This document shows positions 28,612-42,513 of a stretch of DNA of 64,000 bases, one piece after another. A program made the translations under genes and the position numbers. This stretch comes from Vulcanococcus limneticus LL (GTDB lineage: Bacteria; Cyanobacteriota; Cyanobacteriia; PCC-6307; Cyanobiaceae), in NCBI RefSeq assembly GCF_943369875.1, contig NZ_CALROT020000004.1, forward strand, positions 101,765 to 165,764, read 5' to 3'. How positions within the stretch are numbered: position 1 is the stretch's first letter; every line of letters starts with the position of its first letter. The notes under the pieces are model-generated. The model was given only the letters and a program-made list of their open reading frames with translations, was not told where the DNA came from and ran no database searches.

Positions 28612-29913
28612 GTGATGGGGACGGGGCGGGAGCTGGGGCTGCAGGTGAGGGGCTGGCTGGAGGCTGGCGTGCTCGATCTCGACAACCGCACCGCCCTGGC
28701 GAACCGGCTGATCGATGGGCTCGGGGCCGAGGTGTGGCTGAGCGGGCCGGTGCGGGATCTGGCGGCCCAGCCGCTGCTGCGCCAGGTGCTGCGGCAGCAG
28801 GGCGGGGCCCAGCGCTCGGCCCTGGAGAGCCTGCGGCAGCAGCTGGAGCGCACCTATGCGCCGAGGGTGCTGGCAGAGCTGCTGGAGCTGCTGGAGGCGG
28901 CCAGCGGCCTGCCGGTCGGCCTGCCCGCACCCGACGCGCCACCGACGGGTCGCGCCCAGGGAGCCCAGGGCCTGGCGCTTCCTGTCGGTGGCCCGAGCAG
29001 CCCGAACGGTCTCCACGGAGCAGCGGCCGAGGCCACAGGTCTGGAGCTGGCGGTGGCGGAGCCACCCCTGGATGGGTCCCTGGCGGTGGCCGGACCGCGC
29101 GGGGGCCTGGGGGCACCACGCCCAGCCGCCCTCACGGGGCCTGCAGGCCTCAGCGCCCTCGCCCAGCAGCTGCGGCCGCTGGGGCCGGGCCTGGCCCTGG
29201 CCTTCGCCCTGGCCCTGGTGTGGTGGTGGGCGGCACTGGAACTCGACCGGCGCCTGTTCGATGGCTGGGGCTGGAGCGGGGGCGTGGTGCTGGCCGTGCT
29301 GCTCGCTCTGCTGCAGGCCCTGGCCCTGGGGCCCCTCAAGACGGCCCGGCGCCAGTGGCCCCTGGAGCAGGCCGATGCCACCAATCCCCACGGGGCCTGG
29401 CGCTGGCTCACGGCCCCCTGGATCCACCACGACCAGCGCGAGGCGGCGGTGAATCTGCTGATGCTGCTGGTGCTGCTGGGGCCCTCGCCGCTGCCCCTGG
29501 CCGATGTGGTGCTGCGCTACGCCCTCACCAGCCTGGCCACCGTGGCCCTGGCCCTGCTGGTGGCCCAGCGCCGCACCCCCGAGGGGCGCTGGGACGGGGC
29601 CTCCGGGGCGATCAGTGCCCTGGTGGGCCTGGGCACGGCCGCCAGCCTGCTGCACTGGCGCGCCCTGGATTTCCCCCTGGGCCGCCTGGGTTTCGGCATT
29701 CCGGCCTGGGTGCTGCTGGTGCTCTACGGCGCCCTGCAGCTGGCCTGGGTGCTGCCGCGCCGCAGCGCCCAGGACGACAGCCGGCCGCTTGATCGATTGC
29801 TCAGCAGCCAGTGGTGGTGGGGCCTGGTGCTGGGGATCGGCTGGGCCCTGGTGAGCCGAGCCGGCGAGCTGCTTCAGGCGGCGGCGCGGGCCCGGGCCAC
29901 GGCCGCCATGTAG
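28612..29913 (+). CDS. Fusion of the island N-terminal helical domain with a rhomboid-like membrane domain (probably catalytically incomplete)
   Basis: AWRWLTAPWIH...N (WR loop / TM2), WDGASGA (GxSG); no His in the last TM; N-terminus aligns with the 38027 and 40334 products. Confidence 0.7.
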   Translation: MMGTGRELGLQVRGWLEAGVLDLDNRTALANRLIDGLGAEVWLSGPVRDLAAQPLLRQVLRQQGGAQRSALESLRQQLERTYAPRVLAELLELLEAASGLPVGLPAPDAPPTGRAQGAQGLALPVGGPSSPNGLHGAAAEATGLELAVAEPPLDGSLAVAGPRGGLGAPRPAALTGPAGLSALAQQLRPLGPGLALAFALALVWWWAALELDRRLFDGWGWSGGVVLAVLLALLQALALGPLKTARRQWPLEQADATNPHGAWRWLTAPWIHHDQREAAVNLLMLLVLLGPSPLPLADVVLRYALTSLATVALALLVAQRRTPEGRWDGASGAISALVGLGTAASLLHWRALDFPLGRLGFGIPAWVLLVLYGALQLAWVLPRRSAQDDSRPLDRLLSSQWWWGLVLGIGWALVSRAGELLQAAARARATAAM

Positions 29914-32279
29914 CGGCCCCAGAGCTCAGCCACCAACGCCCCGCTGGCAGCCTCGGCCGGGCGGTTGTCGTCGTTGCCCATCCAGATCGCCGAAAGCAGA
30001 TCCAGCGAGGGGGAGTAACCAATGAACAGCACATCGACACCGTTGTTGGTGGTTCCGGTCTTGCCGCGGCCATCAGCGACCACAGCGGCAGCGCGCCCGG
30101 TACCGCGTTGCACCACGGCAGCCAGCAACCGATCCATATCGGCGGCGATCTCGGGCTTGATCAACTGGCGCGCCTGCTCACCGATCGGCACCGTGACGCT
30201 GCCGGATGGGCAATCGCTGAGGCGACGGATCGAGGAGCACATGCCCAGATCCACGATTCGCTTCACGCCATGCAGCGGCACGGATCGTCCGCCGTTGGCA
30301 ACCACGGCATAGGCACGGGCCATCTCATACAGCAGCGTTTCACGACCACCGAGCATCGTGTTGTAATCAGCATCCAGAGGATTGCTGATACCAAGGTCCC
30401 GTGCCCGTTTGACAACCTGAGCAAGGCCAGCCCGCTCCCCGAGCCGCAAGGCCACAACGTTTTCCGACAAGGCAAAGCCGTCAATTACCGTAGCCAAACC
30501 ACCCGAAGAACCAGCTCCATGACTGCAACCAGCCACATAACTCAGCGGCGCACAGGAGATTGAATCTCCCACCTTCACGCCAGCCTCAAGGGCGGCGATG
30601 AAGGGAAACAATTTAAAGGTAGAACCAGGCTGACGCAAAGCCTGGACCCGGTCAAAACTTGATCGACCGTAATCCCCCCCACCCACATAAGCGAGGATTT
30701 CTCCGGTACTGGGTCTGACACTGATCAGAGCCCCCTGCGCAAGACCGACACCTGCAGCCTGGCCATCCAGAAACCTACGCAGCTGCTGCTGAGCAAGAGC
30801 TTGCAAAGCGGGGTCAATAGTACTCTCAACGTAGTAGTTCCCACCCGAATCTTCATTCAAATTCAGGCCAAACCTTACACCCTCCAATTCGCTGATCACA
30901 TAATCACTGAAATAGGGATAAGCCTTGGTTGCGCTTTCCCGACAAGAGGAGGAATCGATGTTCAAAGGCTTGCGCTTGGCATCCGCCAGCACTTGGTCGG
31001 CCTGGGGGCCGTAGCCCAGAAAACCCTGTTCATGCATCAACTGCAGGACCAGGTTGCGACGGTGCACCGGCAACCATTCACCGTCCCGCAGAGCTTTCAC
31101 CCTCTGCCGATCGCCCTCACTCAGATTTCCCTTGCCCTGTTGACGCAGGCGCTCCTCCAACGCAGCGGCTTCTTGCCATGGTTGCGGCGCATAACAAGGG
31201 CTATAGCCATTGGGACTCGGCAGCAACCCCACCAGAAATGCCGACTGAGCCAGATCCAGCTGACTGGCCGAACGCCGGAAGTAGATCTGAGCGGCCTGCT
31301 CAAAACCATCAGTACCGAGACCGAGATGAGCCCGGTCCAGATACATCTTCAGGATCTGATTCTTGCTATATCCAACCTCAAGCTGCAACGCCACCCACAG
31401 CTCCCGCAGTTTGCGGGTGAGGCTGTAGTCCCGACCAACATCGGCATAGTAGAGACGCGCCACCTGCTGGGTGAGACCACTACCGCCGCCGCTGCCCAGC
31501 AATGCCGATCGGAACGTGCCGAACAGGTCAAGGCCACTGTTCCAACCGAAGCGTGCCTCCTCCGAGGCAATCAACGCCTGACGAAGATGCAGCGGATAGC
31601 TGGCCAGGGATGGCAGGGCCGTTGCCGAACCCTGCTTGGCATCCACCTGACTGCCATCGCTGGCAAAGATCTTCACCGGCCCGGCGATGGAGCGGATCTT
31701 CGAGCCGCCTGCCACCGTGGCCGCCGCCAGCATGCCGCTCACCAGGAGTGCCGAGCTCACCAGGCTGCCGATCCCAAGCCAGTGAATCGCCTGCTCAAGC
31801 GCACTGCGGGGATGGTGGTAGCGCAGGACGGGTGCATCACCCTTCAGCGGAGAGCCCAGCCAAACCGCATCGCCATCTCGCAGGCTGATCGCCTTGATGC
31901 GCCGGTCGCGGTGGAACAGACCGTTGGCGGAGTTGAAATCCTCCAGGGTGAAGTCGCGGTCACTCGCGCGGGCACGCTCGAGGATCGCGTGCACGCGACT
32001 CACGCCCGCCACATCCACCGGAAGCTCCGTGCCTGGATCGCGGCCGATGCGCACGCGCCCCGCACCCAGCACCAGGCGGCTGATCCGCTGCTGCCCCTGC
32101 CAGAGCTCAGCAACAGCCTGACGCTGGCGGAGATCATGCCAGGCCTGGAAGAGCGCACCACGCCTGCCAGCGCCGGCCAGGCTGCCGCGGCCACGCACAG
32201 CCGCAAGCAACTGGCGCCAGGCTTGGCGGCGACCCATGGGGGGGGCGGAAGTCTCCTGCTCCACCGTGGTCTGCTCCAT
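29874..32279 (-). CDS. FHA-domain bifunctional class A penicillin-binding protein (transglycosylase + transpeptidase)
   Basis: FHA IGRD...VSRVHA...NSANG; one TM; GT51 SEEARF, GGSGLTQQV, RKLRE, KNQILKMYL; transpeptidase RQPGSTFK (SxxK), SEN, KTG. Confidence 0.9.
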   Translation of the reverse strand: MEQTTVEQETSAPPMGRRQAWRQLLAAVRGRGSLAGAGRRGALFQAWHDLRQRQAVAELWQGQQRISRLVLGAGRVRIGRDPGTELPVDVAGVSRVHAILERARASDRDFTLEDFNSANGLFHRDRRIKAISLRDGDAVWLGSPLKGDAPVLRYHHPRSALEQAIHWLGIGSLVSSALLVSGMLAAATVAGGSKIRSIAGPVKIFASDGSQVDAKQGSATALPSLASYPLHLRQALIASEEARFGWNSGLDLFGTFRSALLGSGGGSGLTQQVARLYYADVGRDYSLTRKLRELWVALQLEVGYSKNQILKMYLDRAHLGLGTDGFEQAAQIYFRRSASQLDLAQSAFLVGLLPSPNGYSPCYAPQPWQEAAALEERLRQQGKGNLSEGDRQRVKALRDGEWLPVHRRNLVLQLMHEQGFLGYGPQADQVLADAKRKPLNIDSSSCRESATKAYPYFSDYVISELEGVRFGLNLNEDSGGNYYVESTIDPALQALAQQQLRRFLDGQAAGVGLAQGALISVRPSTGEILAYVGGGDYGRSSFDRVQALRQPGSTFKLFPFIAALEAGVKVGDSISCAPLSYVAGCSHGAGSSGGLATVIDGFALSENVVALRLGERAGLAQVVKRARDLGISNPLDADYNTMLGGRETLLYEMARAYAVVANGGRSVPLHGVKRIVDLGMCSSIRRLSDCPSGSVTVPIGEQARQLIKPEIAADMDRLLAAVVQRGTGRAAAVVADGRGKTGTTNNGVDVLFIGYSPSLDLLSAIWMGNDDNRPAEAASGALVAELWGRYMAAVARARAAA

Positions 32280-32335
32280 CACCACCACCACCGATCTGCA
32301 GAGTCATAGGGTAGGCAAAGCACCCCTCTGCGCCG

Positions 32336-32611
32336 TTGCCGCGTCACCATGACCCCTGGGAGTCGTTTCGCCTCTGGCTGGCTTTAACGCTTGCCCTGTA
32401 CGCCATCAGGGCGATCTTCGCAGCCCGGTTGCCCGGAGCCATTCCCGGCTGGATTCTGCTGCTGATGGTTCTGGTGAGTGTTGTGATGGCGGCGAAGGCC
32501 CTGCTGTTCCCCGGCAGGGTCATCCCCTACCGAGAGGGCGACGGCGGCTGGTGGACCGACGTGAGCGACGACTGGCGCCTGTGGTGGCAACGCCGGCGGC
32601 AGGGGCGATGA
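32336..32611 (+). CDS. Small two-TM hypothetical protein
   Basis: TTG start; two hydrophobic helices; Trp/Arg-rich tail; stop overlaps the next ATG (ATGA). Confidence 0.6.
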   Translation: MPRHHDPWESFRLWLALTLALYAIRAIFAARLPGAIPGWILLLMVLVSVVMAAKALLFPGRVIPYREGDGGWWTDVSDDWRLWWQRRRQGR

Positions 32612-33372
32612 GCACCACGGCCCAACTGCACCTGCGCGACACCCCCAGCAAGCGGCTGGCGCTGCAGAGCGGCCAACCGCTGACCATCGGCAGCGCCAGC
32701 AACAACCGCCTGGCCCTGGTGAGCCAGCCGGGTGTATCCCCTCACCATGCGGTGGTGCGTTACACCGCCAGCAACGGCTGGGTGGTGTGCGACTGGCAGA
32801 GCAGCGATGGCACCTATCTGGAGGGGGAGCGAATCCGACGCTGCCGCCCCCTGAGCGATGGGGATGAGATCCGTCTGGGGCGGGATGGACCGGTGCTGGT
32901 GTTCAACCTGGAGACGCCCGCTCCGACGGAGGCCCCAGCGTCCAAGGCCCCCGCCCATGCGGCATCGGCGCAAGCCGCACCGAGCCCTGGCACGCGAACA
33001 CCACAGGGGACCAGTGCTGCGCCACGAACGCCGCCGCCTCGCACGATCGACATCGACGGCACCACCGTGCCCGTGAACCAGATCCGATCGGCGGTGGTGC
33101 TCAGCGAACCCCTCTACCCGAAGATCTTCAGCTGGTGGGTGCTCGCCTGCCTGGGTGGCCTGCTGCTGCTGCCCTTCCCGCTGCTGTTCTGGCCATTGGA
33201 GCTGGCGGCTCTGTGCGGCTGGATTGTGCTGGGCTCCCGCAAGAGCCACACCCTGTTGATCGTCCAGCACGACGGCCAGGCGCAGCGACGTGCCTTTGCC
33301 AACCGGGTGACCGCTCTCTCACACCGGAACGGCATCCGCAAGGCCATCGGTCAGAGTCTCGAGAACCCCTGA
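32608..33372 (+). CDS. FHA-like domain protein with a C-terminal two-TM hairpin domain
   Basis: LTIGS...VSPHHAVV...SSDGTYLEG...LSDGDEIRLG; Pro/Ala linker; beta-TM-TM-beta tail reminiscent of DUF6232 (low confidence). Confidence 0.8.
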   Translation: MSTTAQLHLRDTPSKRLALQSGQPLTIGSASNNRLALVSQPGVSPHHAVVRYTASNGWVVCDWQSSDGTYLEGERIRRCRPLSDGDEIRLGRDGPVLVFNLETPAPTEAPASKAPAHAASAQAAPSPGTRTPQGTSAAPRTPPPRTIDIDGTTVPVNQIRSAVVLSEPLYPKIFSWWVLACLGGLLLLPFPLLFWPLELAALCGWIVLGSRKSHTLLIVQHDGQAQRRAFANRVTALSHRNGIRKAIGQSLENP

Positions 33373-33379
33373 GGACCCC

Positions 33380-34732
33380 GTGACCTGGATACTGCCGGAA
33401 GGCGCCTGGATGCAATTCGAAGGCCTGAGCAGCCCCGTCCAGGTGTTGCGAGGCCTGGGCGGGGGCACCCAGGGGCAGGTGTTTGAGGTGGCGGTGGGCG
33501 GCGAGCGTCTGGCGCTCAAGTGGTATCTGCCCAGCTGCCTGGAGAGAGATCCGCACCTGGAACGGAGGCTGCTGGAGAGCATCCGCGCCACCGCACCCAG
33601 TCGTGCCTTCCTCTGGCCGATCACGCTGCTGCGCCCCTCCGCCTCCAGCCTGCCGTTGATCCGTAGCAAGAATCCCGGCTTCGGCTATCTGATGGAGCTG
33701 CGGCCGCCTCAGTTCGTCGGCGCGGTGGAGCACTACGGCGGTCGGCTCGAGATCAGTCTGCGCCAGGCCCTCAGGGCCAGCTTTTTCCTGGCCGAGGCCT
33801 TTCACGCGCTGCACAGCAAAGGCCTTTGTTACAAGGACATCTCTCTTGGCAATCTGTTCCTGGAGGCGGCAACGGGTCGCATCCTGATCTGCGATAACGA
33901 CAACGTGGATGTGGATGGCCGCGACCTCGGCAGCGTGCTCGGCACCCCGGGATTCATGGCTCCCGAAATCCTGATGAGACGGGGCAGACCCGGTGCCAAC
34001 AGCGATCTCTTCTCGATCGCCGTACTGCTGTTCATGCTGCTGACCCGACACCATCCACTCCGCGGACAGATGGAGCTGGCCATTCGCTGCCTGGATGAAC
34101 CGGCGCGCCGCAAGCTCTACGGGGAGGATCCGGTGTTCATCTTCGACCCACAGGACTGCCGAAACCGGCCCGATCCAACGGAGCACGCTGCCGCTCTGCT
34201 GCTCTGGCCGATCTATCCGATACCCCTTCAGGAGCTGTTCATTCAATCCTTCTGCACAGGCATGCATGCCCCCAGCCAACGGGCCCTCACCGGGCAGTGG
34301 ATGGAGAAGCTGGCCGCCGTGCTCGACCAGCGCCAGACCTGTCCCGCCTGCGGCTCGGAGCACTTCAGTTCCCAGACCACCTGTTGGTATTGCGCCGAGC
34401 CCCTGGGCATCGCTGCGGCGTTGCGCATGGCCAACGGTCGGGTGATGGCCTGCACCGATAACGAGCTACATGCCCACCACTTCAACAGCCTGGAGGCACC
34501 GCGCCTCGATGAGCCGATCGCGCGCGTGGTGGCCCACCCCAGCGACCCCAGGCTGCTTGGACTGCGAAACCTGAGCGATCAGCCCTGGCGGGCCACGGCT
34601 GCGGGGGGCCAGCAGCATGCCGTTGCCCCAGGCAAAACATGTAATCTCGCAGCGCTTCTCCAGCTCGACACACCCTGGGGTGCGGTGCGCCTGGAGCCCG
34701 CCAGAAGCGAGCACCTCAGCACGCGATCCTGA
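33380..34732 (+). CDS. Soluble Ser/Thr protein kinase of the YegI / TerY-P type with a Cys4 zinc ribbon
   Basis: LGGGTQGQV, LALKWY, CYKDISLGN, ICDNDN in place of DFG, GTPGFMAPE, SDLFS; CPACG...CWYC. Confidence 0.92.
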   Translation: MTWILPEGAWMQFEGLSSPVQVLRGLGGGTQGQVFEVAVGGERLALKWYLPSCLERDPHLERRLLESIRATAPSRAFLWPITLLRPSASSLPLIRSKNPGFGYLMELRPPQFVGAVEHYGGRLEISLRQALRASFFLAEAFHALHSKGLCYKDISLGNLFLEAATGRILICDNDNVDVDGRDLGSVLGTPGFMAPEILMRRGRPGANSDLFSIAVLLFMLLTRHHPLRGQMELAIRCLDEPARRKLYGEDPVFIFDPQDCRNRPDPTEHAAALLLWPIYPIPLQELFIQSFCTGMHAPSQRALTGQWMEKLAAVLDQRQTCPACGSEHFSSQTTCWYCAEPLGIAAALRMANGRVMACTDNELHAHHFNSLEAPRLDEPIARVVAHPSDPRLLGLRNLSDQPWRATAAGGQQHAVAPGKTCNLAALLQLDTPWGAVRLEPARSEHLSTRS

Positions 34733-35466
34733 TGCCCGGCTTTCCAAACGTTCGTCTGGCCAACCGGCCGCTGCATTTCTTCTATCTGTGCGATTGCTCC
34801 GGCTCGATGGCCGCCCAGGGCAAGATGCAGTCGCTCAACCAGGCGATTCGGCAGTCGCTGCCGGGCATGGCCAACGTTGCCCGCGACAACCCGGAGGCCC
34901 GGGTGCTGGTAAGGGCTGTGGCCTTCTCCGATCAGGCCAGCTGGCATATCGCTGAGCCCACCTCGGTGGAGACACTGCAGTGGCGTGACCTTGAGGCCGG
35001 AGGGGTGACCGCCATGGGCGACGCCCTGAGGCTGGTGGCCGAGCAGCTGCACACCCCACCGATGGAGGAGCGAGCGCTTCCCCCCGTGCTGGTGCTGATC
35101 TCCGATGGCCAGCCCACCGACGATTTTGAAGCCGGCCTCGAACGGCTGATGCGCGAACCCTGGGCTCAGAAGGCCGTGCGCCTGGCAATCGCCCTCGGCC
35201 ACGATGCCGATCTGGAGGTGCTGCAGCAGTTCATCGGGCCCGCACCCGCCAACCAGCGCGAGCGTTCCCCGCGCAGGCCGCTGCAGGCCAGCAACGCAAC
35301 CTCCCTGGCCCAGTACATCCAATGGGCCTCGACGGCGGTGGTCGGAGCGGCCTCGATGCCCGTGAGCCGGATGGCTGACTCCCAGGACACCGGCAGTACC
35401 CCTCTGCCGGATCTGCCTCCCACCGAAATGGATCCGATCGGCGACGTTGGCCCCATGGTCTGGTGA
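34732..35466 (+). CDS. terY: TerY-like von Willebrand factor A domain protein
   Basis: RPLHFFYLCDCSGSM (MIDAS DxSxS), GGVTAMGDAL, VLISDGQPTDD; lies between a kinase and a PP2C. Confidence 0.85.
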   Translation: MPGFPNVRLANRPLHFFYLCDCSGSMAAQGKMQSLNQAIRQSLPGMANVARDNPEARVLVRAVAFSDQASWHIAEPTSVETLQWRDLEAGGVTAMGDALRLVAEQLHTPPMEERALPPVLVLISDGQPTDDFEAGLERLMREPWAQKAVRLAIALGHDADLEVLQQFIGPAPANQRERSPRRPLQASNATSLAQYIQWASTAVVGAASMPVSRMADSQDTGSTPLPDLPPTEMDPIGDVGPMVW

Positions 35467-36980
35467 CTGAGGTGTCTGGGTCCTGGAGCTGGTCCGCACC
35501 GCTGCATCGCAGCCGCTGCGGCGCCTCCCATCAACGCCGTGGGGTGCCCTGCCAGGACGCCTCCTCGTGCGCCAGTCTGCGCAGTGCCGATGGACTGCCG
35601 GTGGGCCTGATGGCCGTGGCCGACGGCCACGGCGGCAGCCGCTACTGGCTCAGTGATGTGGGAAGCCGGCTGGCTTGCGACCTGGCCCTGCAGCTGGCCG
35701 CCAAGGATCTGGCCAGGCGTCCTCTGAGCACCCCTGGAGCGGATGCGCTCGGGGCTGTTCGGCAGTGGCTGGCAGATGAGCTGCCCTCTCAGCTGGTAGC
35801 GGCCTGGCAAGAAGCCATCCAGGCCGACTGGCAACAACGGGACCTGCCGCCGGAGCATCAGGGCGAGTCGTTCTCCGCCCAGACCTACGGCAGCACCCTG
35901 GCCCTGGTGGTGCTGACTCCCCACTGGTGGGCCCACACCGGGCTGGGCGACTGGGATCTGGTGCTGCTGAGCGACCATCAGCCCGATCAGCTCATCAGCC
36001 AGGAGGCCGACAAAGGCCACCAGGGTGAGGCCACGGAGAGCCTCTGCCTGCCGAGCGCCAGCCGCTGCTTTGCCTCCCGCACCGCCGTGTACCCCCTCAG
36101 CGGCGACCAGCGCCAGGCCTGCGGGCTGGTGCTCAGCACCGATGGCATCCGCAAATCCTGCGCCACCGACGCCGACCACCTGGCTCTGAGCCGCTACCTG
36201 CTGGAGGAAGCCCAGACGCACAAGGCCATCGCTGCGGGCAGCTCGGAGCGGCTGGACACCAGCCTTGATCGCATCAGCCGCGAGGGCAGTGGCGACGACG
36301 TCAGCGTGGCCCTGGCCTGCTTCGGGAGCCTGCAGCCCGGGGCGGTGCCATCGCAACCGGTGCCAATGGCGGCTTTGCCCGATCTGACGCCGCTACCACG
36401 GCTGCCGGAACATCCCAGACTTGCGGCGGAGCAGCCGAGTCCCCAATCCAGACGGGGGCGACGGCAAGCCAGACCAACAGCAGGCCCAGCTCTCCTGCGA
36501 ATTGGCGTGGGACTCGCGACGGGCAGCGCCCTGCTTGTAGCTGCCTGGGTTTGGTTGAGACCGGCACTCTTGCGGCCCTTCTCCACGCCAACCACGTTCG
36601 CCGAGCCCAGCCAGGACATCCCGGCGCGACTGACGGCCACTCAGCAAAACAGCATTCAGCTGGAAATCAAAAGGCTCTGCAGGATGGAGCAGGCCCTGAT
36701 CGAATCCACACTGAACCAACGCAAGGAAATTCCCAAGCACAGCCGTGAGCAACCCAGACACATCGAACGACTCCTGGCCGACAACGATTGGCAGGGCAGC
36801 TTGATTGCCCTCAACCGCCCAGGCAGCACACAGCAAACGCAACTTGCAGCCTTGTGCCCTGCTCTCAACAAAGCATTGAAAGCCTACTGGGCAAAACACA
36901 TTCAGCCTCAGCAGGGCAGAGAGTTCAGTAAGCAAGCCGCACCCACAGACGACCAGCCCACCGTCTCAACAGATCCATGA
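35463..36980 (+). CDS. YegK-like PP2C-family phosphatase with a TM helix and a C-terminal extracytoplasmic domain
   Basis: GASHQRRGVPCQDA, AVADGHGG, GLGD, LSTDG, SGDDVSV; TM LRIGVGLATGSALLVAAWVWL; GTGA overlap with the vWA gene. Confidence 0.88.
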   Translation: MTEVSGSWSWSAPLHRSRCGASHQRRGVPCQDASSCASLRSADGLPVGLMAVADGHGGSRYWLSDVGSRLACDLALQLAAKDLARRPLSTPGADALGAVRQWLADELPSQLVAAWQEAIQADWQQRDLPPEHQGESFSAQTYGSTLALVVLTPHWWAHTGLGDWDLVLLSDHQPDQLISQEADKGHQGEATESLCLPSASRCFASRTAVYPLSGDQRQACGLVLSTDGIRKSCATDADHLALSRYLLEEAQTHKAIAAGSSERLDTSLDRISREGSGDDVSVALACFGSLQPGAVPSQPVPMAALPDLTPLPRLPEHPRLAAEQPSPQSRRGRRQARPTAGPALLRIGVGLATGSALLVAAWVWLRPALLRPFSTPTTFAEPSQDIPARLTATQQNSIQLEIKRLCRMEQALIESTLNQRKEIPKHSREQPRHIERLLADNDWQGSLIALNRPGSTQQTQLAALCPALNKALKAYWAKHIQPQQGREFSKQAAPTDDQPTVSTDP

Positions 36981-37045
36981 ATCCAACCTGCTCCGCCTCC
37001 ATTCAGCCTCCTCAATCCCCACGCGAGCACGGCGGCCAGTTATGA
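36977..37045 (+). CDS. 22-aa bridging mini-ORF (MNPTCSASIQPPQSPREHGGQL)
   Basis: ATG overlaps the PP2C stop (ATGA) and its TGA overlaps the next ATG (ATGA); may be coincidental. Confidence 0.3.
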   Translation: MNPTCSASIQPPQSPREHGGQL

Positions 37046-37986
37046 CGGACTACGCACTGGGCAGCGCGATCCGAGCAGCCCTGGATCAACCCGGATCATC
37101 AGGCTCCCGAAGCGTTGAGTCTCGCCTGCCGCAGCTGGTGGCTGCCGATCAGCAGGATCTGCTGCCGGCCCTCAGCTTCCTGCTGCGCTCGCGCGCCATG
37201 GCCAGCGCCCTGGCCCAGCCCAGCGGCCGTGATGACGGCCGCATCGCCGCCCGACTACTGGCGGAGGTGGAAGCCCAGTACAGCCCGGCCATCTGCCAGA
37301 GGCTCCAGGGGGTGATCCAAGGGATGGTCGGGATGCCCGAGCGACAGGCGCCGCACCCCAGCCCCGCCTGGAGCCCGGTGCCACCGGCTCAGGCGGTGGT
37401 CAACCAGCCGGCGGTCACCACCCTGGTGACCACGAGCAGCAGCGGCAGCAGCTGGGTGGTGGCTCTGCTCTGCTTCCTGATCGGCATCGTGGGGAGCGGG
37501 CTGCTGTTGTTGCTCTGGCAGCAGCAGCAGCAGCAGGGCAAACAAGCCGTCAATGTCAGCGCGACGCCCCCCGCACCGACGAACCCACCGGAGCCGCAGC
37601 CGTCCAGCCCAGTGGCACCGGCTAGTGAACCAAGCGCCGCACCGGCCGGCACCGCAGCGATCGATGCCGCCGTGGCCAGCATTCAGGAGCTCTATGCCGC
37701 CCTCTCCGCCAAGGATTATGCAAGCGCCTCCAACCACTACGGCGGCCAGGCCGCCGATCAGTTTGATCCCACCTTCTTCAACCAATTCGAACGGGTGACC
37801 GTGGCGGATCTCCGCCAGACCAGCAGCGCCGGCTCAACGATGAATTTCGAAGGCGTGGTGACCTTTGTCTATCCGAATGGCGATGTTCAGACCGAATCCC
37901 GTAGCTTCACGATGGATACCCGCACCACGCCCGTGCTGATCACCAGCAGCGAATTCGGACGGGTGCTTCAGCCCCGCCGTGGCTAA
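37042..37986 (+). CDS. Island paralogue P1: N-terminal helical domain, TM, Pro linker, NTF2/SnoaL-like extracytoplasmic domain
   Basis: DYALG...YSPAICQRL; TM WVVALLCFLIGIVGSGLLLLLW; C-terminal IQELYAALSAKDY...QFDPTFFNQFERV...ESRSF. Confidence 0.8.
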   Translation: MTDYALGSAIRAALDQPGSSGSRSVESRLPQLVAADQQDLLPALSFLLRSRAMASALAQPSGRDDGRIAARLLAEVEAQYSPAICQRLQGVIQGMVGMPERQAPHPSPAWSPVPPAQAVVNQPAVTTLVTTSSSGSSWVVALLCFLIGIVGSGLLLLLWQQQQQQGKQAVNVSATPPAPTNPPEPQPSSPVAPASEPSAAPAGTAAIDAAVASIQELYAALSAKDYASASNHYGGQAADQFDPTFFNQFERVTVADLRQTSSAGSTMNFEGVVTFVYPNGDVQTESRSFTMDTRTTPVLITSSEFGRVLQPRRG

Positions 37987-38026
37987 TTAGCCGGCCGGTA
38001 GGCTCAACGCACTCACAGCTGCGCCC

Positions 38027-38986
38027 TTGGCTTCAACCTCTGACCACGCGCTGGGGCAACGACTGGCCCAGCTGATCCAGCAGAGCGGAGACTCAGCCTT
38101 TGAAGGCGGTGTGCTCAGCCGCCGGTTGCAGGCTCAGCTCCAGGATCTGCTCGGTGCCGAGACCTCGCTGCTCAACCCGCTCCGGGATCTGCTGCAGCGA
38201 CCCAGCTTCCGGCAGCTCTTCAGCCTGGGCAGCCAGGGACAGCTCCTCCATGCTCGCGACGCCCTGCTGCGGGATCTGGCTGACGTCTACAGCCCAACAG
38301 TGCTGAACAGGCTGGATGCGGTGCTGCAGGGGTGCCTCAACCTGCACGGGGCCGCTGCCGCCACCTGGCCGGCAGCGGCTCCCCCATCCACCGTCAGGAG
38401 CGCAGCACCAGCCGGCCCGTCAGCCTCCTGGTCATCAGCACCCAGCAGCCAACCCCCTCCTGTCGCCTCCGCGCCCCCCACGGTGGTGACCATCCCCACC
38501 CATGCGCAGGGGCCGACGTCCATCCTGATCGCGCTGCTGGCCCTGATCTGCGGCGCGCTGGTGATGGCCCTGGCGGGGGTGCTGATCGGCAACCGCAGCA
38601 CCAACGGCACCACCAGCCCACCGGCCGCCACGAAGCCGAGCAGCCCTCCAGCACCGACTGCTCCCCTCATCCAACCGGCACCCGAACCGCCGCGGTCAGA
38701 GCCGGAGGCCGCAACGGCCGGCCAGTGGCAGGCTTGCGTGGATTACGGCGGCAACGATGGTCCACCTCCCCAGCCCGGCCAAACATGGTGGCCGGTGGTG
38801 GGCCCCGGCGAAGCCCTCGAAGCCTCCCGCCTGCATTGCCGCGGCGACGCCTTCACCAATGCCAACGGCAATGCGCAGGTCGCCAGCTTTCGCGATCGCG
38901 ATACAGCAGCAGCCTTCGCCCAGCAGCTCACCGAAGACAGCAGTCATCCCTACAGCTTCTGGGTTGGCGACCCCACGCAGCGCTGA
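38027..38986 (+). CDS. Island paralogue P2: N-terminal helical domain, TM, SPOR-like C-terminal domain
   Basis: DHALG...YSPTVLNRL; TM ILIALLALICGALVMALAGVLI; QVASFRDRDTAAAFAQQL resembles the SPOR beta-alpha unit. Confidence 0.75.
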   Translation: MASTSDHALGQRLAQLIQQSGDSAFEGGVLSRRLQAQLQDLLGAETSLLNPLRDLLQRPSFRQLFSLGSQGQLLHARDALLRDLADVYSPTVLNRLDAVLQGCLNLHGAAAATWPAAAPPSTVRSAAPAGPSASWSSAPSSQPPPVASAPPTVVTIPTHAQGPTSILIALLALICGALVMALAGVLIGNRSTNGTTSPPAATKPSSPPAPTAPLIQPAPEPPRSEPEAATAGQWQACVDYGGNDGPPPQPGQTWWPVVGPGEALEASRLHCRGDAFTNANGNAQVASFRDRDTAAAFAQQLTEDSSHPYSFWVGDPTQR

Positions 38987-40171
38987 TCAGGCGCAGCTGC
39001 GCCGCACCTGCGTATAGACCTGCTCAAACCGATCCCACCGGAAGCTGCGGGGGTCGTAGCGACTGCGGCTGCGATCCACCGCGGCATGCGTCGTGATCCG
39101 CTCCAAGGGGATCCCATAGAGAGCCTGCCAGCGCAAGATCTGTTCAGCCAAGGCTCGGTATTGCGCTTCGGTGTATCCCGAGTGCCCGCCCTGATCGCCA
39201 CGGCCATCCTCAGGACTCTCCAGGCTGACATGCAAAGCAATGTTGTTGATGGATGGTGGATTGTTTGCCGAAGTCTTGAAGCTGAGATCCCCAAAAGCAG
39301 AATCGCCAGCGCCATAGGCACGGGCCTGGTCGGGCACGATGCGCACTCTCTCTCCATCACGCCCGATCAACACGTGATAACTGCCCTGGGCCGAATCATT
39401 GGCCTGATCACGCTGGAAGAGCTCAACCGTTGAGGGCAGATCCAGAACCGTTTCATGCAACACGATCAGTGCAGGTTCTGCCGGGATGGCAGCACCGCTG
39501 GCGTCCTGCGTCTGCCGTTTGCCAAAGTTGCTGGCCGCCGCCAGCCGCTGGGTCTCCTGCTGGGGTGACCCCAGACGGGCGCAACGGTCCAGGCCATCCA
39601 CCGCCACGGGCGTGGCTGGCGCGCGCAACGATGAACCTGCGGTGCCCGTGGCCGGAGAACCTGCCGGCGCAAGGGCCGGATCGATCGCTGGGAGGGGTGG
39701 TGCCGCCACTCGAAACGCGGTCAGTCCCAGCCAACTGAGGCCCGCGCCGATGGCCACACCCACGCCCAGCCCCAGCAGCCAGCTGCGTAGATCGGGCTCC
39801 TGCCGATCTGCGGACAGCCCCGAGGCAGGAGCTGAATCCCCACCCTCCTGCCAGCCCTCCAGCAAGCCATCGAGGAAGGCCTGCTGCGGCGACACGCTGT
39901 CGGCCGGAAGGCTCCGACCAGCGCCATCCAGCAGCTCCTTCAGGGCCTGAGCACGGGCGCCATCCTGATCCGAAGCCAGCAGGGTGACGCAGGCCGGGTG
40001 GCGCAGCAGGGTGATCAGGCATTCCCGCAGCTGAGGCTGATCAGCCAGCAAGTGCTGCAACGCATGGGCGATGGCAGCCGGTACCTCCTCCGACGCCAGT
40101 CCACGCCTGCGCGCCGATAACACCAGGCCTCGAGCCAGGGAGAAGAGATCGGAGGCCTGCTGAGAGCGCAT
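38987..40171 (-). CDS. Membrane-anchored N-acetylmuramoyl-L-alanine amidase (Amidase_2) with a diverged island N-terminal domain
   Basis: IVLHET, GSYHVLIGRDG, SLES, YTEAQYRAL, ITTH...YDP Zn-ligand pattern; TM WLLGLGVGVAIGAGLSWLGL. Confidence 0.88.
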   Translation of the reverse strand: MRSQQASDLFSLARGLVLSARRRGLASEEVPAAIAHALQHLLADQPQLRECLITLLRHPACVTLLASDQDGARAQALKELLDGAGRSLPADSVSPQQAFLDGLLEGWQEGGDSAPASGLSADRQEPDLRSWLLGLGVGVAIGAGLSWLGLTAFRVAAPPLPAIDPALAPAGSPATGTAGSSLRAPATPVAVDGLDRCARLGSPQQETQRLAAASNFGKRQTQDASGAAIPAEPALIVLHETVLDLPSTVELFQRDQANDSAQGSYHVLIGRDGERVRIVPDQARAYGAGDSAFGDLSFKTSANNPPSINNIALHVSLESPEDGRGDQGGHSGYTEAQYRALAEQILRWQALYGIPLERITTHAAVDRSRSRYDPRSFRWDRFEQVYTQVRRSCA

Positions 40172-40305
40172 CAGGAGTCAGCCTGGTGAAACGGGAGAGA
40201 GGAACCAAGGCGCCGCCCCGGAGCAGCACAGGCCACCCAGGAGCGCGCATAGGGCAGCGCCCAGAAGTACTGCGGAGCTGCTCAGCCCCAGGTTCACGCC
40301 GATCC

Positions 40306-40311
40306 TATACT
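40306..40311 (+). promoter_or_regulatory. Possible -10 element for P3
   Basis: TATACT in an AT-rich spacer 23 bp before the TTG at 40334. Confidence 0.35.
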
Positions 40312-40333
40312 GATAACAGCGACAAAAAAGTCC

Positions 40334-41353
40334 TTGACAGGCAGCCCTGACTATCAACTTGGCAAGAGAATTGCACAGTTTCTCAATCAGAATGGCAGCA
40401 ACAACAATCCCGACAGCCGACTGATCAACAGCCTGCCAGACCTGATGGGGAGTGATCCATCTCTACTCCCACCCTTACGGGACATGATTCTGCGTCCCAG
40501 CTTGCGCAGGCTGCTGCACGAGAGCCAACCATCCCTCCTGCGGAGTGGACGCGACAGCCTGATTGCAGATCTGCAATTTACCTACAGCAGCACCATCATC
40601 TTTCGACTGCAACGTGTGCTGAGTGGCATCCTCAACCTGCCGGATATCGACGAACCGCGCACTCACGGACAGTGGGTCGATAACCCGCCCCCCCACTCAC
40701 AGGATTGGCCGCCCTCCAGCCACAGCGTTTCAGCACAACCCACCCCCAGCACCACAGTCACCTACGCCATTCAGACGCCATCCCAGGGCCAAAGCGGGCT
40801 GACTGCCGCGATGATCGCCCTGTTGGCCCTCATCTGTGGGGGAGGGCTCGTGGGCTTGATCTGGCTGCTGACCGGCCAATCCCCGCCGACACGCCAGGAT
40901 TCGCCTTCAACAACCCAGGCTCCGACCACGCCCTCACCAGCTGCCCCCGCACCACGTCAGCTGCAGGAGCCCACCCCTGCCCCCTCCAATCCCTGGGGGC
41001 CACCAGAGGAGTACAAATTCGGCCAGGGCCCCAGCCAGACCTATCCAGACACCTGTGCCTTCTCCAAGACGGACGCCCGTGGCGAACGGACGCTGGAGGA
41101 TAAATCACAACTGGAATTCTGGGCTTGCCGTGATGAAGGCGGCGACACCAATACCGGTTATGCCGTGATCTGGGGTGACGGCAAACGCACGGTCTACCGC
41201 TTCATGAACGGCGGGACTGGCGTGGTACAGGGAACCAACGGCCAGGATGTACCGATGTCTTGGCGCAACGACACCCACAACGGCCAGAAGATCATCGCCA
41301 TCAGCCATCAGGACGGGGCAAACTCCTGGATTCCTGGCCATGTGGACGACTGA
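40334..41353 (+). CDS. Island paralogue P3: N-terminal helical domain, TM, unknown beta-rich extracytoplasmic domain
   Basis: DYQLG...YSSTIIFRL; TM MIALLALICGGGLVGLIWLL; C-terminal domain with two Cys and alternating beta-strand patterns. Confidence 0.75.
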   Translation: MTGSPDYQLGKRIAQFLNQNGSNNNPDSRLINSLPDLMGSDPSLLPPLRDMILRPSLRRLLHESQPSLLRSGRDSLIADLQFTYSSTIIFRLQRVLSGILNLPDIDEPRTHGQWVDNPPPHSQDWPPSSHSVSAQPTPSTTVTYAIQTPSQGQSGLTAAMIALLALICGGGLVGLIWLLTGQSPPTRQDSPSTTQAPTTPSPAAPAPRQLQEPTPAPSNPWGPPEEYKFGQGPSQTYPDTCAFSKTDARGERTLEDKSQLEFWACRDEGGDTNTGYAVIWGDGKRTVYRFMNGGTGVVQGTNGQDVPMSWRNDTHNGQKIIAISHQDGANSWIPGHVDD

Positions 41354-41362
41354 ACGCGAGCC

Positions 41363-42513
41363 ATGAACGACCATCAGCTTCGCGTCCTGCTGCGAGAGCG
41401 GATCATGGCCGACCTGCAGAGCGGCATTCCGTGCGAGGGCCAGCACCTGCAGCTGTTGATGGGCGACCCTGCGGCGAGCTTCAGATGCCCCTGCTGCCAG
41501 CCCTGCGCTATCTGGTGAGGAGCCCGGCGTTCAGCAACGCCGTGGAGCAGAGGCCAGCGCTGACCGGGGAAACCCGCCTGCACCTACTGCACGAGGAACT
41601 TGAGAAGGCGTTCACCGTTGCGATCTGCCGACGCATGACGGCGGTGCTGCGGGACCTGCTCGGGCTGCCCGCAGGGGAGATCGCAGCGTTGGGCAAGGCC
41701 AGCGCACCGCCCACCACCCCTGGGCCACAGCCGATGCCAAGGCCTCCGCAACCGCTGCACCGACCGCTGCGGTCCATCGCCGGGCAGTCAAGCCAGTCGA
41801 CGTGAGCGATCCCACAGGGGGGTGAACTGCCCGCGGGCTGGCCGATCGAGGAGTTGATCCGGGAGCAGCCCGGCTGCGGGCGCGCCGCCGCAGGCGGCAG
41901 GCGATCTGTGGCGGTGGTGCTCAGCTTCATGGCCGAGGTGCTGGTGGTGGGCGTCCTGGGAGCGCTGGGCTGGATGGCACAGATCAGCCGTCAACCACTG
42001 CAGCCCCTTCACAGCAGCCAAGGCACCAGCCAGCAGCCGCTGGAAACCGAAGCAGCTCCACTCCAACCACAGGAGCCCGCGGCCAGCCCGCCTTCCCCGG
42101 CACCTGATCTGGGCACACAGGAGGCCAACCCTGACCAGGCGATCACCAGGGCTCAAAAGCTCTATGCCGAGCTCTCGAGCGGCAAGATGGATGCCGTGCG
42201 CCAACTGTTCAGCCCCGCCAGCCTCAGGCAGCGCCAGAGCCAGATCACCGGGCTGGCCACGGGTCAGCTCCAGGCCCGCCAGCTCCAGCGCAACGCCGCC
42301 ACCGATCCGCTCGGGGCCCTGCTCGGCACGGCCTTCCTGGCCCGGGAGCCGCAGCAGACGCCCCGGCCGCTCCGCGCCCTGGGGGCCAGCCCGGAGCTGG
42401 AGGCGGCCCTGGCCGCGACCTGGCCGGCCGGACCGGCGGACAGGAGGATGGGACCACGGCCCGCCCAGGCCGGCCCCACCGGCTCCAGCCGGCCCACGGC
42501 CCCACCGCCATGA
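41363..42513 (+). pseudogene. Island paralogue P4: frameshifted, interrupted and chimeric
   Basis: MNDHQL...MGD then a frameshift near 41468 into ELQMPLLPALRYLV; in-frame TGA at 41803-41805; TM RSVAVVLSF; NTF2-like domain breaks off at FSPA (~42219) and continues into unrelated high-GC sequence. Confidence 0.75.

Follow-up and report, generated by a model that had tools for sequence, protein, structure and literature searches.

The question raised by this locus of Vulcanococcus limneticus LL is which member of a kinase-vWA-PP2C triad is turned towards the outside of the cell, and what a membrane-held phosphatase would be doing among the genes that surround it. A preliminary description of the 64,000-nucleotide stretch analysed here (the window) had reported a TerY-P-type triad in kinase-first order, with a membrane anchor and an extracytoplasmic domain on the PP2C, and had proposed that the phosphatase rather than the kinase is the transmembrane sensor. 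The three overlapping ORFs, their order and their junctions were corroborated (Table 1; Pfam Pkinase E=2e-14, VWA E=5.6e-7, PP2C_2 E=1.4e-25). The kinase stop overlaps the vWA start in a TGATG at 34730-34734, the vWA stop overlaps the GTG start of the PP2C in a GTGA at 35463-35466, and the GTG start of the kinase lies 7 nt after the end of an upstream gene encoding an FHA-2TM protein, the first of the operon, with which the three triad genes are translationally coupled. The triad is divergent to a class A PBP bearing a cytoplasmic FHA domain, the flanking membrane proteins (a rhomboid and D1-D5) have in common a cytoplasmic domain that we call D-N, and the flanks of the locus are made up of housekeeping genes (atpB, NAD synthase, CNNM).

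Table 1. Features of the triad locus, in positions of the window
Feature	Position	Strand	Basis
Rhomboid-family membrane protein, N-terminal cytoplasmic D-N domain	28612..29913	+	Pfam Rhomboid E=5.8e-7
Class A PBP (transglycosylase + transpeptidase), FHA aa 80-146, TM ~aa 172-190	29874..32291	-	Pfam, NCBIfam
FHA-2TM protein, Pro/Ala-rich linker, C-terminal hydrophobic hairpin	32551..33372	+	Pfam FHA 5.4e-15
Hanks-type Ser/Thr kinase, predicted soluble; kinase domain aa 1-316	33380..34732	+	Pfam Pkinase
vWA protein (TerY/YegL-like), predicted cytoplasmic	34732..35466	+	Pfam VWA
PP2C, whole ORF	35463..36980	+	
PP2C catalytic domain, predicted cytoplasmic, aa 1-290	35463..36332	+	PF13672 E=1.4e-25
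Pro-rich, Arg-rich disordered juxtamembrane linker, about aa 291-342	36333..36488	+	pLDDT 41-45
Single transmembrane helix (predicted), aa 343-368	36489..36566	+	AF2 helix; hydrophobicity
Predicted extracytoplasmic all-alpha domain, aa 392-480 (~90 aa)	36636..36902	+	AF2 model; tail HMM
D1, bitopic: cytoplasmic D-N, TM helix, ~105-aa ectodomain D1-C	37042..37986	+	D-N HMM E=1e-43; D1-C HMM E=9e-55
D2, paralogue: D-N, TM helix, different ectodomain	38027..38986	+	D-N HMM E=5e-26; alignment; hydrophobicity
N-acetylmuramoyl-L-alanine amidase, membrane-anchored, TM ~132-150	38987..40171	-	Pfam Amidase_2 E=1.3e-17
D3, paralogue: D-N, TM helix, third ectodomain type	40334..41353	+	D-N HMM E=1e-27; hydrophobicity
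D4, disrupted paralogue	41354..42513	+	D-N split over two frames; in-frame stop 41803-41805
D5, paralogue: D-N, TM, D1-C-type ectodomain	42510..43556	+	D-N HMM E=1.3e-44; D1-C HMM E=1.6e-50

The PP2C metal motifs noticed earlier (Q31-D32, D54-G55-H56-G57, D227-G228 and D278-D279) are all present and invariant among 52 homologues, and the catalytic domain was modelled with pLDDT >90 and gave Foldseek PP2C matches at E~1e-9 (probability 1.0). The succession of Pro-rich linker, TM helix and two-Cys tail that had been read from the sequence is borne out by the AlphaFold2 (AF2) model, in which the disordered Pro-rich stretch covers aa 297-341, and the homologue alignment. The hydrophobic segment has a Kyte-Doolittle (KD) value of at least 1.6 in 153 of 171 full-length homologues and of at least 1.3 in 170 of them, and in the family K+R amounts to 3.3 before the segment vs 1.9 after it, a positive-inside bias. 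The PP2C is thus predicted to be a bitopic, N-in membrane protein. Its ectodomain is modelled as seven helices (pLDDT >90) and the tail contains exactly two Cys, C406 and C465, both invariant in homologues, as are the columns L417, D442, I448 and W476; the fold is probably stapled by a disulfide through the Cys pair. Searches of Pfam and of PDB sequences returned no match to this domain, which is family-specific and previously undescribed. In a cyanobacterium, the side that it faces may be the thylakoid lumen and not the periplasm.

The predicted topology supports the earlier placement of anchor and extracytoplasmic domain on the PP2C and not on the kinase. As had been stated, the kinase lacks a TM segment: sliding hydrophobicity detected no 19-mer at Kyte-Doolittle 1.5 in either the kinase or the vWA protein, and the AF2 model of the kinase (pLDDT 89.7, pTM 0.90) is one compact soluble protein. 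Residues G27/G29, K47, D153, N158 and D172 are invariant in the kinase homologue alignment, together with the four Cys (C321, C324, C335 and C338) of a zinc ribbon that is followed by a C-terminal beta-rich domain (aa 347-439), while Foldseek returned kinase matches at E~1e-12, PknB and PknA among them. By sequence and model this kinase, with its Zn ribbon and beta domain, is soluble and catalytically intact. A single STK has been catalogued in MIT9313 and in three marine Synechococcus (PMC2176072), and we infer that the lineage of the triad kinase is probably this one. The vWA protein, in turn, keeps an intact MIDAS (D21-x-S-x-S, T93, D125) and a C-terminal motif, LPDLPPT(231)-x-x-D, invariant among homologues. 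It is 29% identical to YegL and 25-29% identical, across 84-93% of length, to plasmid TerY-C vWA proteins, although Pfam and comparison with the latter revealed no TerY-C metal-binding domain in it.

Comparison with known triads makes the displacement of the anchor apparent. The enterobacterial arrangement invoked in the preliminary description, vWA-PP2C-kinase with a PP2C that is not receptor-like, was verified in both E. coli K-12 and the IncHI2 ter plasmid pKpnB1_1, and kinase-first order is a real departure from it, seen across the loci of the clade. In E. coli the order is yegL(vWA)-pphC(253 aa)-yegJ-yegI, reversed with respect to the window; YegL, PphC and YegI are remote homologues of all three window proteins (BLASTP E=9e-7, 5e-4, 3e-6), and the kinase and PP2C activities have been biochemically demonstrated (bioRxiv 10.1101/819920, 10.1101/303594). 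There, however, the membrane protein is the kinase YegI, two-pass and without ectodomain, and PphC is soluble, whereas in the window anchor and ectodomain are on the PP2C. The plasmid TerY-P system consists of the same three families in one co-oriented cluster, and its kinase likewise has a CxxC...CxxC zinc ribbon and then a beta-rich domain, but no TM segment was found in any of its three proteins, its PP2C carries an N-terminal extension instead of a C-terminal TM tail, its vWA protein has the TerY-C metal-binding domain that the window protein lacks, and it lies with terW/terD on a conjugative plasmid rather than in a core chromosome adjoining cell-wall genes. The closest non-cyanobacterial homologues are soluble triads of Acidobacteriota, Verrucomicrobiota and Methylococcales (loci L074-L081), with identities of 43-58% for vWA, 35-42% for the kinase and 31-35% for the PP2C. 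Their kinases show the identical kinase-ZnR-beta architecture, including the HH and HPxDPxxxGLxN motifs, but their PP2Cs (260-300 aa) are tail-less and the order is mostly vWA-PP2C-kinase, Crenothrix being kinase-first; a neighbouring FHA-PBP, rhomboid or D-family gene was not seen at any of these loci.

PP2Cs that combine a membrane anchor and an ectodomain are, as such, an established architecture. The cyanobacterial PP2C PrpJ of Anabaena is reportedly located in the plasma membrane, judging from how Jang et al. (2007), cited in PMC3052367, titled their study; it is not known as a member of any vWA triad. In Mycobacterium tuberculosis, PstP runs from a cytoplasmic PP2C through a juxtamembrane linker and one TM helix into an extracellular domain whose ligand is not known (PMC3052367). 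Its cluster, fhaA-fhaB-pstP-rodA-pbpA-pknA-pknB, sets FHA proteins and peptidoglycan enzymes alongside the phosphatase, as does the window, whose FHA-2TM protein matches the FhaB/FipA FHA model (E=1.4e-10). The window PP2C is nevertheless not orthologous to PstP, as judged from sequence: a phmmer search against the PDB returned no PP2C at E<=1, the PstP catalytic domain included, and the helical Cys-pair ectodomain is unrelated to that of PstP. Moreover, the mycobacterial kinases are TM PASTA receptors and that of the window is soluble, the mycobacterial cluster has no vWA gene, and in the window FHA is fused directly to a PBP. The Deinococcus radiodurans operon DRA0331-DRA0334 brings together the same four domain types as the window operon (vWA, STPK, FHA protein and PP2C) with demonstrated kinase/phosphatase antagonism, but its PP2C is joined to an FHA-like domain and the system has been linked with DNA-damage signalling (bioRxiv 10.64898/2026.01.23.701218).

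The gene neighbourhood points to the cell wall. The same block (atpBE, rhomboid, FHA-PBP1A, FHA-2TM, kinase, vWA, PP2C-TM, D1) is shared by 41 of 54 complete loci, and its synteny was seen in dozens of species genomes. The rhomboid gene forms the upstream edge, directly after atpB/atpE, and is syntenic in 38 loci; the D-N HMM matches the window copy (E=6e-4) and 36 orthologues, down to E=1e-9. The PBP (Transgly 1.9e-38, Transpeptidase 4.2e-22, FHA 1.5e-11; NCBIfam PBP_1a 2.2e-108) occurs in 43 of the 54 complete loci, and its FHA domain keeps the canonical residues GR/SxxH/NG. The FHA-2TM protein, conserved in 55 loci, has a hydrophobic peak at 195-213, and, as a point against the FHA wiring proposed below, its FHA domain has Ser where the canonical Arg would follow the conserved Gly. 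D1 lies directly 3' of the PP2C in most loci (about 33); its 97 homologues are all picocyanobacterial, all 'hypothetical' and without Pfam domain. D4 retains two D-N HMM pieces (41354-41515 and 41179-41802), and in its C-terminal part the PP2C ectodomain recurs, lacking the paired Cys (tail HMM E=9.6e-9, 41806-42510). An Amidase_2 gene, with no D-N HMM match at its N-terminus, sits inside the D-gene array; L017 is the sole other locus where it was seen beside D1.

Taken together, we lean towards an envelope-signalling module of picocyanobacteria built on a TerY-P-type triad, with a PstP-like tethered PP2C arm and FHA wiring to peptidoglycan enzymes, the latter link being suggested by conserved synteny and domain logic. 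A look for RNA runs containing the locus found none. The kinase would phosphorylate Thr on membrane-proximal partners, candidate targets being the D-N proteins and, by conjecture, T231 in the vWA tail, where LPDLPPTxxD has the Asp at pT+3 of an FHA-type motif. Reading of these pThr marks would fall to PBP1A and the FHA-2TM protein through their FHA domains, so that peptidoglycan synthesis or remodelling might be switched or relocated, and the PP2C, membrane-held like mycobacterial PstP, would erase them. The ectodomain would most likely bind or position partners in the periplasm, such as the D1-type ectodomain, to which the PP2C tail is fused in nine homologues; this would set the place and timing of dephosphorylation, rather than allow allosteric switching by a ligand.

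The sensing scheme of the preliminary description, a transmembrane phosphatase acting by relief of dephosphorylation, can be spelled out as a Cys-pair ectodomain that perceives a periplasmic ligand or redox state, lowers PP2C activity and thereby relieves the dephosphorylation of a soluble kinase that is constitutively active; it seems to us rather unlikely. In its favour, purifying selection acts on the ectodomain, a well-folded domain with invariant residues, the kinase carries neither TM segment nor recognisable sensor domain, and the anchor is on the partner opposite to E. coli YegI. However, ~45 disordered residues before the TM helix and ~20 after it in the AF2 model leave no obvious path for conformational coupling, and such linkers flanking a single helix argue against allosteric transmission. 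Neither Pfam nor PDB comparisons recognised a ligand-binding fold in the ectodomain, the marine orthologues are tail-less with kinases 63-65% identical, and five nearby bitopic D proteins that share ectodomains with the PP2C could be the receptors. As receptor candidates, D1-D5 are as good as the PP2C. That the ectodomains of D1-D5 and the rhomboid are the sensors or effectors, coupling to kinase and vWA through D-N, with the PP2C tail only a tether or co-receptor, is a doubtful, slightly less probable proposal. It would account for D-N being common to at least five window paralogues and to the rhomboid in 36 genomes, for three ectodomain types on one cytoplasmic module, for the nine fusions and for the D-N proteins near tail-less Prochlorococcus triads, but D-N has no known function or Pfam match and the juxtamembrane cluster of Thr residues shows no conservation.

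Anti-phage defence of the TerY-P type reportedly described by Gao et al. in 2020, or a ter-linked metal/tellurite stress switch such as Anantharaman et al. are said to have proposed in 2012, is a quite improbable function for this triad. The three domains are the same, the Zn ribbon at the kinase C-terminus fits the definition of TerY-P (PMC11090510), the vWA protein is distantly homologous to the plasmid TerY-C proteins and PADLOC gave a weak TerY match (E=0.0027). Against this, PADLOC gave no match for the PP2C or with its TerY-P kinase model, Pfam annotation and gene neighbourhood showed no ter, nuclease or restriction genes near the triad, the vWA protein is without TerY-C domain, and the triad adjoins atpBE at a fixed core-genome site in 34 loci, with median identities of 75% for vWA, the best conserved of the block's proteins, and 62% for the kinase. 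That the hydrophobic segment does not span the membrane, leaving the tail as a cytoplasmic regulatory domain, is hardly credible, since the modest hydrophobicity of the window copy (KD 1.77, with G, T and S within) is set against KD 2.0-2.9 at the same place in most homologues despite unconserved sequence, as is typical of a TM helix, a positive-inside bias across the family, an invariant Cys pair only after the segment and, in the AF2 model, a helix of 26 residues that stands alone with disordered linkers on either side.

The envelope-signalling reading that we favour extends well beyond this genome. The tail domain is present in 161 of 171 (94%) full-length PP2C homologues of the clade, the tail HMM matches the PP2C ORF at roughly 60 loci, and of 44 informative Cyanobium-clade picocyanobacterial loci 41 have the tail together with FHA-PBP. 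Hence the TM-tailed PP2C is the standard form in the Cyanobium/Synechococcus 5.2 clade and not a peculiarity of the window; the preliminary description had weighed the chance that such proteins are common and already described, and common they are, but a literature search found no paper describing the TM-tailed PP2C of such triads. Marine relatives keep the kinase-first order with a tail-less PP2C, and their neighbours are other FHA-bearing proteins, among them a membrane protein (FHA-FHA-ABC transporter); since neither the tail nor an adjoining PBP belongs to these triads, the core function of the triad would not be intrinsically tied to peptidoglycan. In freshwater and brackish picocyanobacteria (Cyanobium, Synechococcus subcluster 5.2 and Vulcanococcus) the module is conserved and vertically inherited, rather than a defence island, as the fixed core-genome position by atpBE and the high median identities indicate. 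Because the tethered form is standard in the clade and its neighbours are cell-wall genes, the locus would represent a conserved envelope-signalling module of these organisms and not a one-off.

The kinase, vWA and PP2C genes of the triad occupy the positions that the preliminary description had assigned to them, and their junctions overlap as it had stated, by TGATG between kinase and vWA and by the 4-nt GTGA between vWA and PP2C. Since only 7 nt lie between the end of the preceding FHA-domain gene and the kinase start, these overlaps make four genes tightly packed on one strand.

Features of the triad and its neighborhood, with positions in the window and residues of the encoded proteins
Feature	Window (nt)	Strand	Residues (aa)	Remark
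Rhomboid, D-N domain	28612-28950
FHA-PBP1A (class A PBP)	29874-32291	-
FHA-2TM protein	32551-33372	+
Kinase	33380-34732	+
Kinase, zinc ribbon	34340-34400	+	321-340	CxxCGxExFxxxxxCWxC
Kinase, beta domain		+	347-439
vWA	34732-35466	+
vWA, tail	35392-35466	+	221-244	ends in LPDLPPT(231)-x-x-D
PP2C	35463-36980	+
PP2C, catalytic domain		+	1-290	confident in AlphaFold2 model
PP2C, Pro/Arg-rich linker		+	297-341	disordered in AlphaFold2 model
PP2C, Pro-rich juxtamembrane stretch	36438-36480	+	326-339	ALPDLTPLPRLP
PP2C, isolated helix		+	343-368	AlphaFold2 model
PP2C, ectodomain		+	392-480	seven helices, pLDDT >90; ~20 disordered residues between helix and domain
D-family expansion	37042-43556
Amidase_2	38987-40171	-		membrane-anchored
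D4	41354-42513			D-N split over two frames (41354-41515, 41179-41802); in-frame TGA 41803-41805

The kinase matches the Pfam Pkinase model (E=2e-14) and retains the Gly loop, K47, D153, N158 and D172, while four invariant cysteines (C321, C324, C335 and C338) make up a zinc ribbon C-terminal to the kinase domain. An AlphaFold2 model (pLDDT 89.7, pTM 0.90) depicts one compact soluble protein in which kinase domain, zinc ribbon and beta domain follow one another, with short strands ahead of the beta domain, and its kinase fold matches include PknB and PknA. Pfam detected no PASTA domain, and the absence of a TM segment, already proposed, agrees with a maximum KD of 1.45 in the hydropathy scan. 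The zinc ribbon pattern recalls RanBP2-type zinc fingers; its best match in the PDB profile search, the RBM10 zinc finger, was not significant (E=0.096). The beta domain, which had no match when PDB sequences were searched with a profile, displays an FHA-like motif pattern but was rejected as an FHA domain: hhalign gave it a probability of 0.5% against 55 aligned FHA domains, 54 of them from the compared loci and the remaining one from the window.

The vWA protein matches Pfam VWA (E=5.6e-7), contains the MIDAS DxSxS motif and showed no TM-grade hydrophobic segment by hydropathy. It aligns over its full length with plasmid 'TerY-C' vWA proteins (tblastn, 25-29% identity), and the TerY-C domain is absent from it. 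The motif closing its tail is invariant, and a phosphothreonine with Asp at +3 is a classical FHA ligand pattern. Among enterobacterial plasmid proteins, those nearest to the vWA (35% identity) were discarded as triad members, as they occur beside an AAA-ATPase gene and outside any triad; on the Klebsiella plasmid CP052535.1 (37171-41603), a vWA/hypothetical/AAA-ATPase cassette lies between IS elements.

The phosphatase matches PP2C_2 (PF13672, E=1.4e-25), and an alignment of 52 homologues showed that both its metal motifs (Q31-D32, DGHG 54-57, D227-G228 and D278-D279) and two cysteines located beyond the TM helix (C406 and C465) are invariant; the preliminary description had noted both in the window copy. 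Its AlphaFold2 model (mean pLDDT 82) resolves into four parts, and Foldseek assigned it to the PP2C fold (E~1e-9, probability 1.0); the Foldseek searches of this protein and of the kinase were made with whole models and returned the catalytic domains alone. Taking together the model, hydropathy, the positive-inside rule and the Cys pair, the protein is predicted to span the membrane with one TM helix, its N-terminal PP2C domain in the cytoplasm and its C-terminal domain outside, as had been proposed. Neither Pfam (E<=1) nor PDB profile searches gave a significant match to the ectodomain, the best being FeoC at E=0.14. The Pro-rich juxtamembrane stretch resembles the LPDLPPT of the vWA tail, and on sequence grounds the two may represent one short linear motif recognized by a common partner; in homologues, the PP2C version is poorly conserved.

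Within the Cyanobium/Synechococcus 5.2 clade, the membrane-anchored phosphatase is the common form. A protein search yielded 420 relatives; the best 120 were encoded in genomes of Cyanobium, Synechococcus and Prochlorococcus or in aquatic metagenomes. The hydropathy scan placed a hydrophobic segment at about residues 280-380 of most full-length members, with 110-370 residues after it; Prochlorococcus PP2Cs of ~286 aa lacked this segment. An exhaustive HMMER scan of 1.84 billion representatives returned 2,645 relatives, whose scores drop sharply beyond the best ~110 (E<1e-30), the members of the picocyanobacterial clade. Among the 171 clade proteins of at least 400 aa, a 19-mer with KD >=1.6 was found in 153 and one with KD >=1.3 in 170, and the ectodomain HMM matched 161. 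The K+R count was 3.3 before the helix and 1.9 after it in clade homologues, in agreement with an N-in orientation. A C-terminal hydrophobic segment is present in 11 of 38 more distant representatives too, so this PP2C family has TM tails outside the cyanobacteria as well. At three loci (L020, L030 and L057) there is a second tailed paralogue with no kinase or vWA gene beside it, in two cases back-to-back with a D2-like gene.

A scan of one genome per species provided 79 loci whose ORFs were compared with the window proteins by BLASTP. A block consisting of rhomboid, FHA-PBP1A on the opposite strand, FHA-2TM, kinase, vWA, tailed PP2C and D1 (the first of the bitopic paralogues 3' of the PP2C) recurs across Cyanobium, Synechococcus 5.2 and Vulcanococcus, with atpB and atpE upstream in 34 loci and housekeeping genes (ATP synthase beta, NAD synthase, CNNM/CBS, HAD) as flanks. 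Median identities to the window were 75% for vWA, 64.5% for FHA-PBP, 62% for the kinase, 53% for FHA-TM, 52% for the rhomboid, 45% for PP2C and 38% for D1. The order kinase-vWA-PP2C occurs in 63 loci and vWA-PP2C-kinase in four, all non-cyanobacterial. Out of 54 loci with complete flanks, 41 combine the tail with FHA-PBP/FHA-TM, two have the PBP and no detectable tail, one has the tailed PP2C alone and 10 have neither (L001 and L005 of Prochlorococcus, L057 of Vulcanococcus limneticus, and the non-cyanobacterial L074-L076 and L078-L081). The cluster is thus part of the vertically inherited core genome and not a mobile island. The window sequence is present in DNA runs from lake and freshwater metagenomes, and the transcript search matched the locus in no RNA run. 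G+C content falls to 60-67% over the FHA-PBP, triad and D-gene region (30001-42000) versus 72-78% in most of the window; since the atpB/E region (24-28 kb) is also at ~66%, this dip is not specific to the cluster and, with synteny conserved, does not point to recent transfer. Seven MAG records (L003, L014, L033, L044, L047, L062 and L068) with clearly cyanobacterial synteny have titles naming unrelated organisms (Klebsiella, Bifidobacterium breve, Chitinophaga pinensis, Bordetella parapertussis, Bradyrhizobium, Asaia and Tabrizicola) and are evidently mislabelled.

Two of the conserved neighbors bear FHA domains. The divergent class A PBP has a canonical one, with GR, SxxH and NG conserved, on its cytoplasmic N-terminus, and the FHA domain of the first operon gene, whose product ends in a hydrophobic hairpin, matches the FhaB/FipA model. 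The genes that follow the PP2C (D1, D2, D3, a disrupted D4 and D5) encode a common cytoplasmic N-terminal domain of ~110 aa (D-N), followed by a single TM helix and an ectodomain that belongs to one of three or more unrelated types; these proteins have no Pfam match and every database relative is 'hypothetical'. The D-N domain also heads the rhomboid in 36 genomes and occurs near the tail-less triads of Prochlorococcus. Ectodomains appear to be exchanged between this family and the phosphatase: a copy of the PP2C ectodomain is found in D4 (ectodomain HMM, E=9.6e-9), and the D1-type ectodomain, present in D5 too, is fused C-terminal to the PP2C tail in 9 of 223 homologues (E=2e-47 in P0003, for example). 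Such Rosetta-stone fusions argue that the PP2C and D1 ectodomains may act together outside the membrane. The D4 reading frame looks like a pseudogene or a sequencing or assembly error, and in its downstream part the second Cys of the PP2C-ectodomain copy is replaced (LGASPELEAAL). A juxtamembrane Thr cluster of the D proteins was dismissed as a phospho-site, not being conserved in 79 D1 homologues. Inside the D-gene array lies an Amidase_2 gene, encoding a peptidoglycan amidase and the second peptidoglycan enzyme of the neighborhood, which adjoins D1 in only one other locus (L017); its N-terminus aligned weakly with D-N but went undetected by the D-N HMM even at E<=10.

Comparison with relatives places the membrane anchor in context. 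In Prochlorococcus LLIV genomes and marine metagenome contigs, the kinase-vWA-PP2C order is kept with PP2Cs of 246-286 aa, and the neighbors are an FHA-FHA-ABC transporter, COP23, trypsin-like proteases and a Zn peptidase. This marine neighborhood is itself conserved (L001, L002 and L083-L085) and includes several Trypsin_2 or Trypsin_2-TPR proteins. Since the transporter carries two N-terminal FHA domains, the two contexts have an FHA-bearing membrane protein in common. Relatives in Acidobacteriota, Verrucomicrobiota, Methylacidiphilales, Methylococcales and Chloroflexota share the kinase-zinc ribbon-beta architecture of the window, but have a soluble PP2C of ~260-300 aa and mostly the order vWA-PP2C-kinase. 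Remote homology links all three window proteins to the E. coli K-12 module yegL-pphC-yegJ-yegI (BLASTP: kinase E=3e-6, 22% identity over 213 aa reaching the Cys motif; N-terminal motif of PP2C 5e-4; vWA 9e-7). There the phosphatase is soluble and the kinase YegI has been shown experimentally to be a two-pass membrane protein (bioRxiv 10.1101/819920), whereas in the window the kinase has no TM segment and the PP2C holds it. The IncHI2 ter plasmid triad consists of a TerY-C vWA, a PP2C of 545 aa with an N-terminal extension and a kinase with the same zinc-ribbon arrangement as in the window, and a TM segment was found in none of the three. Both systems bear out the statement that the enterobacterial order is vWA-PP2C-kinase and that the PP2C is not the receptor-like partner there. 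Relocation of the anchor to the phosphatase is a real, lineage-specific change.

The architectures, the intact catalytic and MIDAS residues, the conserved TM helix and ectodomain, and the synteny with FHA-bearing envelope proteins lead us to propose that the soluble kinase would phosphorylate Thr residues on membrane-proximal partners, that the FHA domains of PBP1A and the FHA-2TM protein would read these marks and that the PP2C, tethered by analogy to mycobacterial PstP, would reset them. The mycobacterial enzyme is a membrane-tethered PP2C (PMC3052367), and the window cluster would work like the actinobacterial PstP/FhaA/FhaB/PBP cluster without being homologous in sequence; a phmmer search of the window PP2C against PDB gave no PP2C match at E<=1. 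The partners of PstP are TM PASTA kinases, whereas the window kinase has neither TM nor PASTA. The resemblance is, therefore, functional and not one of orthology. The preliminary description was right in observing a triad with a membrane-anchored PP2C, but its interpretation of the phosphatase as the sensor, signalling by relief of dephosphorylation, is only partly supported and appears rather unlikely: disordered linkers lie on both sides of the single helix, tail-less orthologues exist in marine lineages and the D family provides alternative receptors. For these same reasons, positioning or the binding of a partner is a more likely role for the PP2C ectodomain than allosteric switching. In a broader variant, which we regard as quite improbable, the phosphatase would be the receptor of the only Hanks-type pathway that these streamlined picocyanobacteria possess, with the disulfide-bearing PP2C ectodomain and the bitopic proteins, which share D-N as a cytoplasmic adaptor and swap ectodomains with the phosphatase, jointly reporting periplasmic, redox or wall state and the FHA domain fused to the class A PBP reading the output directly; if true, wall synthesis would be gated by Thr phosphorylation without a receptor kinase.

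Whether the triad belongs with the TerY-P systems depends on the level considered. TerY-P has reportedly been described by Gao et al. in 2020 as an anti-phage defence system whose kinase is fused to an OB fold. At the domain level, the triad is defined as a TerY-like vWA, an adjoining PP2C and a kinase with a C-terminal zinc ribbon (PMC11090510, after Anantharaman et al. 2012), and the window has a MIDAS vWA, a PP2C next to the vWA gene and a kinase with the ribbon. The usual order is vWA-PP2C-kinase, with ter, DNA-processing or restriction genes nearby (PMC11090510), features that we took as typical and not strictly defining. The window differs in its order, kinase-vWA-PP2C, in its neighbors (atpBE, rhomboid, PBP, FHA and D proteins), in lacking the TerY-C domain and in its membrane-anchored PP2C. 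A TerY-P defence system was rejected on the PADLOC scan, with no PP2C match, only generic models for the kinase (mad6, PD-T4-6) and a marginal TerY hit (E=0.0027). Instead of the variable, island-like context of defence loci, the block keeps a fixed syntenic position by atpB/atpE. A defence or tellurite module is, consequently, very unlikely, given the negative PADLOC result, the synteny within the core genome and the lack of ter or nuclease neighbors.

Picocyanobacteria, which contribute greatly to aquatic primary production, have very few signalling proteins. One early survey of genomes (PMC2176072) lists a single, motif-deviant Ser/Thr kinase for Prochlorococcus MIT9313 and for three marine Synechococcus, and this is probably the kinase lineage of the triad analyzed here. 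The searchable literature yielded no description of the picocyanobacterial module or of the three domains without assignment, which are the PP2C ectodomain, D-N and the D1 ectodomain (D1-C); uncharacterized so far, these are now defined. These data indicate that, besides serving as defence or tellurite modules, TerY-P-type triads can act as regulators fixed in the core genome. The freshwater and brackish clade has its triad hard-wired to an FHA-bearing PBP1A, a rhomboid and a bitopic protein family, and this wiring, together with a membrane anchor and a new ectodomain on the phosphatase, offers a concrete, testable model of how the state of the envelope could be conveyed to wall growth.
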